Of a stretch of DNA of 64,000 nucleotides, positions 30,547-33,669 are shown piece after piece. Source of the DNA: Escherichia coli (lineage in GTDB: Bacteria > Pseudomonadota > Gammaproteobacteria > Enterobacterales > Enterobacteriaceae). The stretch lies in assembly GCF_003334785.1 (NCBI RefSeq), contig NZ_QOWV01000009.1; one strand, written 5' to 3'. Both the position numbers and the translations under genes were made by a program. Below the pieces are notes generated by a model that had not been told where the DNA came from, made no database searches, and saw only the letters and a list, made by a program, of their open reading frames with translations. How positions within the stretch are numbered: position 1 is the first letter of the stretch; each line of letters starts with the position of its first letter.

Positions 30547-30768
30547 GCCGGATGCGGCGTGAACGCCTTATCCGCCCTACGCGGTTCTGGCACATTTTGC
30601 AGGCCTGATAAGACGCGGCAAGCGTCGCATCAGGCATCGGAGCACTTATTGCCGGATGCGGCGTGAACGCCTTATCCGGCCTACGGTTCTGGCACCTTTT
30701 GTAGGCCTGATAAGACGCGGCAAGCGTCGCATCAGGCCTGATAAGACGCGGCAAGCGTCGCATCAGGC
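30547..30768. repeat. BIME: tandem REP cluster between araJ and mak
   Basis: Repeated gccggatgcggcgtgaacgccttatccg(g/c)cctac and aggcctgataagacgcggcaagcgtcgcatcaggc units; an approximately 110-bp composite unit is duplicated in tandem with one extra REP copy. Confidence 0.85.
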
Positions 30769-31826: not shown

Positions 31827-32738
31827 ATGCTGTGGTTCAAAAATTTAATGGTTTACCGTCTTAGCCGCGAGATTTCGCTGCGTGCAGAAGAGATGGAAAA
31901 ACAGCTAGCCTCGATGGCATTTACCCCATGCGGCAGCCAGGACATGGCGAAGATGGGCTGGGTTCCTCCGATGGGATCGCACAGCGATGCGTTAACGCAC
32001 GTTGCCAATGGTCAAATTGTTATCTGCGCGCGCAAAGAAGAAAAAATCCTCCCGTCTCCGGTGATTAAACAGGCGCTGGAAGCGAAAATCGCCAAACTGG
32101 AAGCGGAACAGGCGCGTAAGCTGAAGAAAACCGAAAAAGATTCGCTGAAAGACGAAGTGCTGCACTCTCTGCTGCCGCGTGCTTTCAGCCGTTTTAGCCA
32201 GACAATGATGTGGATCGACACGGTTAACGGTTTGATTATGGTGGACTGCGCCAGTGCCAAAAAAGCGGAAGATACGCTGGCATTACTGCGTAAAAGCCTG
32301 GGGTCGTTACCGGTTGTACCATTGAGCATGGAAAACCCGATTGAACTGACGCTGACCGAATGGGTTCGCTCCGGTAGTGCGGCACAGGGCTTCCAGCTGC
32401 TTGATGAAGCCGAGCTGAAATCGTTGCTGGAAGATGGCGGCGTGATCCGCGCGAAGAAACAAGATCTGACCAGCGAAGAGATCACCAATCACATTGAAGC
32501 CGGAAAAGTGGTGACTAAACTGGCGCTCGACTGGCAGCAGCGCATTCAGTTTGTGATGTGCGACGATGGTTCGCTCAAGCGTCTGAAGTTCTGCGACGAG
32601 CTGCGCGATCAAAACGAAGATATCGACCGTGAAGATTTCGCCCAGCGTTTTGATGCCGATTTCATCCTGATGACTGGTGAACTGGCAGCGTTAATTCAAA
32701 ACCTGATTGAAGGATTAGGTGGCGAAGCACAACGTTAA
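31827..32738 (+). CDS. rdgC: Recombination-associated protein RdgC
   Basis: ORF-track frame 31755-32738; start placed at [29 protein letters not shown]... (303 aa). Confidence 0.93.
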
Positions 32739-32757: not shown

Positions 32758-32790
32758 GCCGGATGCGACGCCTGCCGCGTCTTATCCGGC
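32758..32790. repeat. REP element downstream of rdgC
   Basis: gccggatgcgacgcctgccgcgtcttatccggc, a canonical REP palindrome beginning about 20 nt after the rdgC stop. Confidence 0.7.
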
Positions 32791-32895
32791 GTACGAAGCC
32801 ACACCAGGCATATAATTATTCGCTACGGCGAGCAATAATTTTTAGCGCAGCAATATTATGCGTTTTACGCTGTAACTTGCTCCATGGACGTTGTG

Positions 32896-33177
32896 TCATT
32901 GTTTTTCCTCAAGCCGGTGACGCGCTTCACTGCGAATTTTCCGCGTTGCCCCGGTTTTCACTAAATCACGTAACAGCGAAAGATCGGGTTGTTCGACAAA
33001 TAAGAGTAATGATGGATCCTCTTTTAACCACGCCGTTTTCACATCGGCAGCCAGCTGTGGATTATTAATAGCCAGCGACCGATCCTGAGGCTCAGTCAAT
33101 GTCGTTAACAACAACGCCGGGGTATGTGCGTTGCGCAATGCCGTTTGGCGTAAATGATCATTGCGACTTTGCAGCAA
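32896..33177 (-). CDS. ykiA: Hypothetical small ORF at the position of K-12 ykiA (possible gene remnant)
   Basis: 93-aa ORF MLQSRNDHLRQTALRNAHTPALLL... between rdgC and ppnP; no recognisable domain. The symbol is assigned by position only, recalled from K-12 gene order, and is unverified. Confidence 0.3.
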   Translation of the reverse strand: MLQSRNDHLRQTALRNAHTPALLLTTLTEPQDRSLAINNPQLAADVKTAWLKEDPSLLLFVEQPDLSLLRDLVKTGATRKIRSEARHRLEEKQ

Positions 33178-33384
33178 TGCACGCCACCATTCATCATCTG
33201 ATTTATCTTTTATCGTAGCCAGTTCCGCAACAATATCTGGAGATCTTCACTGATATTTATATCAACCTTGATAAATTATGAATATATCGGAAATTGAAAA
33301 AATCGCAGCAAAGGAAATATTATTATGGGCTAAAGAAAGGATATTTCAGAAAAATGCCCTCCCGTTCAAGGGGAAGGCGAGGAA

Positions 33385-33669
33385 TTACAGATAGCGGCAC
33401 AGATAAGAGGTGGGTTCGGCAACTTGCAGATGAAACTCACTGTGACCGGGAACATTAAACACCGAACCGGCTTCATACACCTGCCAGTCGGTCGCGTCAG
33501 GCAGTAACACATTCAGCGCGCCACTGATTACCGTCATCTCTTCCGGCTCAGCGGTGCTGAAGGTGTATTCGCCTTCAACCATAACACCCACGCTGGCGCG
33601 ACCAGTGCTGCTGCTGGAAAAGCCGATTGATTTCACTTTGCCGGAAAAGTACTCATTACTTTGAAGCAT
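33385..33669 (-). CDS. ppnP: Pyrimidine/purine nucleoside phosphorylase PpnP (YaiE)
   Basis: 94-aa [40 protein letters not shown]... recognised as PpnP. Confidence 0.92.

Follow-up and report, generated by a model that had tools for sequence, protein, structure and literature searches.

Background

The gap between rdgC and ppnP in Escherichia coli contains a short reading frame, and the question that it raises is whether this frame encodes a bona fide small protein or is the surviving piece of a larger gene that has decayed. We investigated this problem in a stretch of DNA of 64,000 nucleotides (hereinafter the window; contig NZ_QOWV01000009.1 of the RefSeq assembly GCF_003334785.1), in whose E. 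coli segment the gene order around the frame is mak–rdgC–gap–ppnP–aroM. The gap measures 646 bp, from the stop of rdgC at 32738 to that of ppnP, a minus-strand gene, at 33385. The frame itself lies on the minus strand at 32896..33177, begins with a TTG and encodes 93 residues, in agreement with the first-pass annotation of the window, which had described a frame of this size in a gap of about 650 bp.

Results and discussion

Identity of the reading frame

The first-pass annotation had taken the position to be that of ykiA in K-12, and this proved correct. In the RefSeq annotation of E. coli K-12 MG1655, ykiA (b0392) is a pseudogene at NC_000913.3 408609..408950, and ykiD (b4732) is found at 408947..409030. 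Subtracting the K-12 coordinate from 441846 gives the window position, which places ykiA at 33237..32896, i.e. at 32896..33237 on the minus strand, with the 93-residue frame inside it; the pseudogene consists of the last 113 codons and the stop of a 759-codon gene of the DUF2773/YdbD family. Over the region, the window and MG1655 differ by 1 mismatch in 2,701 nt. In records that are 100% identical to the window, PGAP labels 32896..33237 (minus strand) as 'DUF2773 domain-containing protein, incomplete, missing N-terminus' and 32816..32899 (minus strand) as 'protein YkiD'. Given the same locus, matching coordinates and no sequence difference beyond that single nucleotide, the ykiA/ykiD pair of K-12 and that of the window are the same object, and the RefSeq annotation of ykiA, taken with this near-identity, makes our finding the known ykiA pseudogene.

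Two features ascribed to the frame at first pass did not hold. It had been said to lack any recognizable domain; in fact its product spans the whole model of the Pfam family PF10971 (DUF2773; positions 1-81 of 81, E = 2.3e-46). The upstream frame had been said to close immediately before the start codon; we found 23 sense codons between the in-frame TGA (33249..33247) and the TTG, and all but one of these 23 show homology with the intact protein. The 113 codons of the remnant are, as a whole, 93% identical to residues 647-759 of an intact 759-residue protein and show 38% identity to residues 656-766 of YdbD, while an NCBIfam search with the 113-residue remnant returned no match. The absence of an obvious ribosome-binding site, also claimed earlier, was confirmed, only a weak Shine-Dalgarno-like GGTGG being found 6 nt upstream of the TTG.

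The frame has thus no start codon and ribosome-binding site of its own, as the ancestral ATG has been deleted, which leaves the internal TTG at 33177 as the earliest canonical start. The full-length architecture of the DUF2773/YdbD family (750-800 residues) is absent from the window, where only codons 357-362 and ~650-759 survive. The window therefore contains a fragment of a member of this family and no functional member. The 93-residue frame is very probably a non-functional leftover from the 3' end of a gene that deletions have destroyed, namely the annotated K-12 pseudogene ykiA, which is already known as a pseudogene in the reference genome.

The first-pass annotation had also reported a flanking repetitive extragenic palindrome (REP), and this element is present at 32758..32790, between rdgC and ykiD, whose ends converge there. 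It is an extragenic imperfect palindrome that forms a hairpin in the predicted fold, and the pattern GCCGGATGCG..CTTATCCGGC that characterizes it occurs in 3 copies in the window as against 0 in 100 shuffles; by these features it belongs to the REP elements. The two other copies, at 30651-30680 and 61728-61757, are identical to each other (GCCGGATGCGGCGTGAACGCCTTATCCGGC). An Rfam scan of the region detected no RNA gene, its sole match being a partial, sub-threshold one of the REP to naRNA4 (E = 0.011; 27.8 bits, the gathering score being 59.5), which we take to be REP-derived. On the plus strand, frames of 38 residues (33278-33394) and 101 residues (32763-33068) overlap the ykiA promoter region or run antisense to the ykiA remnant (ykiA') and ykiD, and a promoter-like site is seen at 33294-33323; there is no evidence that either frame is a gene.

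The intact operon

FORC_044, a strain of the O157 type, carries two overlapping minus-strand genes in this gap, which code for a 759-residue DUF2773 protein and a 149-residue protein of the SF0329 family, and the intact operon is likewise found between rdgC and ppnP in strains W619 and RM9872-C1. The longer intact homologue for which the first-pass annotation had proposed to search is hence available in O157:H7-type E. coli, and its interpretation of the frame as a piece of a decayed gene is upheld both by this intact form in the same gap and by the RefSeq pseudogene. The O157:H7 pair, comprised of WP_120795310.1 (named 'ydbD' in the Sakai record) and the SF0329 protein WP_001303823.1, constitutes the orthologous locus from rdgC to ppnP. 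Relative to it, the window is 94% identical in the region upstream of the gene and, as noted, 93% identical in the remnant, but it lacks the start codon, codons 1-356 and codons ~363-649 of the first gene, and codons 12-135 of its partner. In other strains that have the pair, the SF0329 protein has 151 residues. In O157:H7 it has 149 and ends in ...ALKNYCPP, owing to a 1-bp indel near the 3' end (locus positions 1624-1660); the commoner ending, ...ALKIIARRSE, was seen in the 151-residue form at the three loci compared and is the one retained by YkiD.

Orthologues of the long gene extend beyond these strains. Escherichia sp. E4930 carries an intact 759-residue orthologue with 73% identity between ppnP and rdgC, without SF0329, and another E. 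coli assembly has a 90%-identical intact orthologue, with SF0329. The intact gene shows an omega of 0.21-0.24, pointing to purifying selection. An exhaustive HMMER search recovered a family of full-length homologues of 750-800 residues with 25-35% identity, distributed over 169 clusters at E <= 1e-3, 109 at E <= 1e-10 and 35 at E <= 1e-30. SF0329 is not a constant partner of this family, being absent beside the homologues in E4930, at two metagenomic enterobacterial loci and at ydbD. Within K-12 itself, YdbD (b1407, 768 residues) aligns with the 759-residue protein over its whole length (28% identity, E = 3e-84). It is an intact paralogue with the predicted architecture of the ancestral gene product; it differs from ykiA in its location (1.475 Mb), in being intact, and in having no SF0329 gene downstream.

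An AlphaFold model of the intact protein, built with 41 homologues, reached a mean pLDDT of 91 and comprises an N-terminal hydrophobic helix, a β-helix at ~68-176 and an unbroken α-solenoid that continues to the C-terminus. The N-terminal helix may, to judge from its sequence, be a signal peptide with an A-x-A site. Mapped onto the model, the remnant covers the last few helices of the continuous solenoid and forms no autonomous domain. A match to the leucine-rich repeat variant protein 1LRV (E = 7e-13) was obtained with the central part of the family profile, and a Foldseek search against the PDB retrieved only generic HEAT/ARM solenoids with TM-scores of 0.1-0.3. The resemblance to LRV/HEAT-like solenoid proteins such as 1LRV is thus one of repeat fold only, of which the window keeps just the final helices, and generic matches at such low TM-scores permit no functional inference.

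In the AFDB fold search the top non-self matches were members of the YdbD group, with names such as 'DUF2773 domain-containing bactofilin' and 'protein involved in detoxification of methylglyoxal', which are database labels only; a Pfam search of the intact ykiA-type protein gave no bactofilin match, and an NCBIfam search of the 759-residue protein gave no match. As the gap is variable between strains, a reading of it as a defence island or prophage region was also considered, and was dropped when PADLOC and PHROGs searches with both intact proteins matched no families.

Anatomy of the deletions

The junctions in ykiA were read from a comparison with the intact gene. From 33244 upward, the window matches the DNA directly 5' of the ATG of the intact gene, and from 33237 downward it matches codons ~647-759. 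Between the upstream DNA and the 3' part lies an 18-nt stub (33226..33243, minus strand) that represents codons 357-362 (SPDIVA) and is fused in frame to codon ~650. In blastn, 18 of its 18 nucleotides match positions 3264-3281 of the intact O157-type locus, corresponding to nucleotides 1069-1086 of the gene, and an exact 17-mer of the stub has a single site in the gene, at nucleotide 1069, that is at codon 357 in frame 0. The TGA that closes the remnant frame (33247..33249, minus strand) falls in the former 5'UTR/Shine-Dalgarno region of the intact gene.

This arrangement implies two breakpoints. At the first, codon 357 adjoins the 5'UTR at a point 2-3 nt ahead of the ATG, with the loss of ~1.07 kb and a microhomology of 1 nt. 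At the second, codon 362 is joined to codon ~650, with an in-frame loss of 864 bp (288 codons) at the imperfect repeat CGCAA.AATATC. In all, ykiA has lost its start codon and ~1.93 kb. Among the complete genomes, where 444 of the 447 that bear the gene body have >=80% of it, neither upstream break was found without the other, so that the order of these breaks as two steps is one that we infer.

YkiD, a relic of the SF0329-family gene

The gene ykiD (b4732; 32816..32899, minus strand; RefSeq) encodes 27 residues, the sequence of which is MTQRPWSKLQR followed by KTHNIAALKIIARRSE. These are exactly residues 1-11 and 136-151 of the 151-residue SF0329 protein. Blastn matches that overlap by 10 bp and the junction sequences show that ykiD was formed by an in-frame deletion of 372 bp (124 codons) between 10-bp direct repeats, CGC[C/T]GTAACT, one copy of which survives at the junction (32868..32877). 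The ATG of ykiD overlaps the stop codon of ykiA (ATGA) and is preceded, at a distance of 7 nt, by a GAGG Shine-Dalgarno sequence. The intact SF0329 protein (149-151 residues) is recognized by NCBIfam NF049912, with 93.7 bits against a cut-off of 60, and by Pfam PF25753 (E = 4.8e-22), whereas the 27 residues of YkiD have no match in NCBIfam and are not picked up by the SF0329 profile. Its descent from SF0329 is accordingly established by exact residue identity and the deletion junction rather than by a profile match. A sequence search of the PDB with SF0329 found nothing significant.

YkiD is among the small proteins newly named in an epitope-tag/immunoblot screen (VanOrsdel et al., PMC6001520). 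In that paper the words pseudogene and remnant are not used, and no relic origin of YkiD is mentioned; a literature search on SF0329, DUF2773 and ykiD yielded nothing further of relevance. It is essentially shown by the present comparison that this published small protein is what an in-frame deletion has left of an SF0329-family gene.

Distribution of the alleles in E. coli

The census was based on 5,426 complete E. coli genomes, in 5,425 of which the rdgC–ppnP gap was matched by megablast. The 1.94-kb gene body is kept in 447 of the 5,426 (8%), mostly of the serotypes O157:H7, O55:H7 and O145:H28, and the middle segment of SF0329, through the absence of which the ykiD-forming deletion was counted, is kept in 921 (17%). 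The same upstream truncation junction as in the window is present in 4,967-4,981 of the genomes (~92%). The truncated allele is hence the majority form, in about 83-92% of genomes, and the junction common to its carriers is an argument that the truncation arose only once.

A third allele, seen in the O104:H4 type and others, has the K-12 upstream junction but has lost window positions 32900-33219, i.e. the rest of ykiA'. Its carriers share a +1 frameshift of SF0329 in the C-run at codon 5. The loss of what remained of ykiA', together with the frameshifted SF0329, indicates that decay is continuing. Both genes are damaged in each kind of non-intact allele that we examined, which hints that the 759-residue and SF0329 proteins work together. 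IS1 insertions in or beside the ykiA/DUF2773 gene were observed in strains 5444, VL7S7, 100416 and CUWW06.

Promoter and expression

The region at 33244..33384 (minus strand) corresponds to the ancestral upstream region of the DUF2773 gene, comprising its 5'UTR and promoter; it is the part that is 94% identical to the O157-type allele, and it is AT-rich (36-40% GC). A promoter scan detected a σ70-like site on the minus strand, with the −35 element at 33349-33344 and the −10 element at 33327-33322, directly after a terminator-like hairpin of ppnP (33378-33356). A ykiA promoter-lacZ fusion has been reported to be activated by BglJ-RcsB, with the transcription start mapped by 5'RACE (Salscheider et al., PMC3950696), and the promoters of ynbA and ykiA are both BglJ-RcsB targets according to the same study. 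In K-12, ydbD (positions 7145-9451 of the K-12 segment) has ynbA (9622-10227) downstream, so that both DUF2773 loci adjoin BglJ-RcsB-regulated promoters.

Since the promoter has escaped deletion and its activity has been published, transcription probably runs through the relic, across both ykiA' and ykiD. The retention of the ykiD ATG and of its GAGG Shine-Dalgarno sequence provides a plausible reason for a detectable product of 27 residues. From ykiA', which lacks an inherited start codon, no functional protein would be expected.

Selection on the remnant and the possibility of domestication

Among the alternatives to simple decay, the one that survives best is that the remnant is now a domesticated mini-gene, whose product would be a DUF2773-only protein of 93 or slightly more residues, made from the BglJ-RcsB-inducible transcript and selected alongside YkiD. 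We examined constraint in a sample of 8 diverse remnant alleles. None of the 8 interrupts the 113-codon frame, one pair having an in-frame 3-bp deletion, and the segregating changes comprise 28 nonsynonymous and 17 synonymous ones, with 0 stop codons. The open frame and an omega of ~0.5, which is below 1, would favour a mini-gene. This omega is far above that of the flanking genes but not clearly higher than in the corresponding part of the intact genes (0.27-0.41); given the small counts and a transition bias, it fits decay and weak constraint alike, and it does not demonstrate a relaxed constraint statistically. The pN of the remnant is 0.012-0.039, against <= 0.0014 for rdgC, 0 for ppnP and <= 0.0135 for aroM, and this excess over the flanking genes, of about tenfold or more, speaks against domestication. 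By our estimate, the ~45 substitutions would be expected to create ~2 new stops, so that an open frame is weak evidence of selection. Among database ORF calls, moreover, there are frameshifted and chimeric versions of the remnant; some of these may be assembly errors, and the frameshifted variants again weigh on the side of decay.

Other observations pull in both directions. The kept and reportedly active promoter (PMC3950696), the detection of the downstream relic YkiD as a small protein (PMC6001520), the presence of the allele in >80% of E. coli genomes and the coverage of the complete PF10971 model by the fragment are all in keeping with a mini-gene. Against this, the fragment has inherited no start, the TTG being an internal leucine codon that is equally present in the intact genes and has only the weak GGTGG upstream of it; in the structural model it amounts to the last few helices of a solenoid, with no autonomy; and in the O104:H4-type lineage it has been deleted entirely. 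On balance we regard a domesticated ykiA' as improbable. The broader proposition that the relic operon as a whole is alive, with two domesticated mini-proteins (a DUF2773 fragment of ~93 residues and the 27-residue YkiD) under selection in >80% of E. coli, we likewise hold to be unlikely. Of the conserved, constrained and translated 93-residue orthologue that the first-pass annotation had named as the mark of a genuine small protein, we recovered only the frame open in 8 of 8 alleles and the omega of ~0.5. Our preferred reading therefore continues to be that of a non-functional gene remnant.

Direction of change

It could also be supposed that the short K-12 form is ancestral and that the 759-codon gene of the O157-type strains arose later, through insertion or fusion of foreign DNA. 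Such a course of events would fit the majority status of the short allele and the AT-rich composition of the region, which is like that of acquired DNA. Yet the short form has no start codon and begins in the middle of a repeat, and its 18-nt stub from codon 357 is inexplicable by insertion. The long form, moreover, occurs at the same locus, with 73% identity, in an Escherichia divergent at the species level, has the architecture of the wider family of 750-800 residues that includes YdbD, and is, by its omega of 0.21-0.24, under purifying selection. The stub and the outgroup already refute this reading in effect, and we assign it very little probability. Conversely, the same-locus orthologues, the purifying selection, the full-length family and the alignment with YdbD establish the long form as ancestral and the K-12 form as derived from it by deletion. 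That the frame is merely a chance opening in intergenic DNA with no gene ancestry, an idea for which nothing more than its small size and weak ribosome-binding site could be adduced, has already been refuted by the PF10971 match (E = 2.3e-46) and by the C-terminus of the intact protein, to which the remnant is 93% identical; it has virtually no chance of being correct.

A scenario for the decay of the operon

The history of the K-12 form can be summarized as follows. The ancestral state was a minus-strand operon in the rdgC–ppnP gap of Escherichia, with a first gene coding for a 759-residue paralogue of YdbD. The ancestral protein had a β-helix and an LRV/HEAT-like solenoid that ended in the DUF2773 region, preceded by an N-terminus that, to judge from its sequence, is signal-peptide-like. 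In E. coli, the 759-codon gene is translationally coupled, via the ATGA overlap, to a gene of the SF0329 family that codes for 151 residues. The truncation of ykiA may then have come about through two successive microhomology-mediated deletions or, as an alternative mechanism, through one template-switching event. A third, independent in-frame deletion of 372 bp reduced the SF0329 gene to the 27 codons of ykiD.

Conclusions

As the annotation of the reference genome already lists ykiA among the pseudogenes, its recognition in the window has little discovery value. What the analysis adds is the anatomy of the breakpoints, the stub of codon 357 and the origin of YkiD from SF0329, all of which are absent from PMC3950696 and PMC6001520; to these we add the three-allele decay series and the recognition of YdbD as the intact paralogue. 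The locus offers a clean, fully resolved example of how a gene decays stepwise through microhomology-mediated deletions, since alleles that are intact, half-decayed and further-decayed coexist within one species. That a reported small protein, YkiD, is a relic with a kept ribosome-binding site calls for caution in catalogues of small proteins. The O157:H7-type strains, in turn, are the place to study the intact BglJ-RcsB-regulated pair of YdbD-like and SF0329 proteins.
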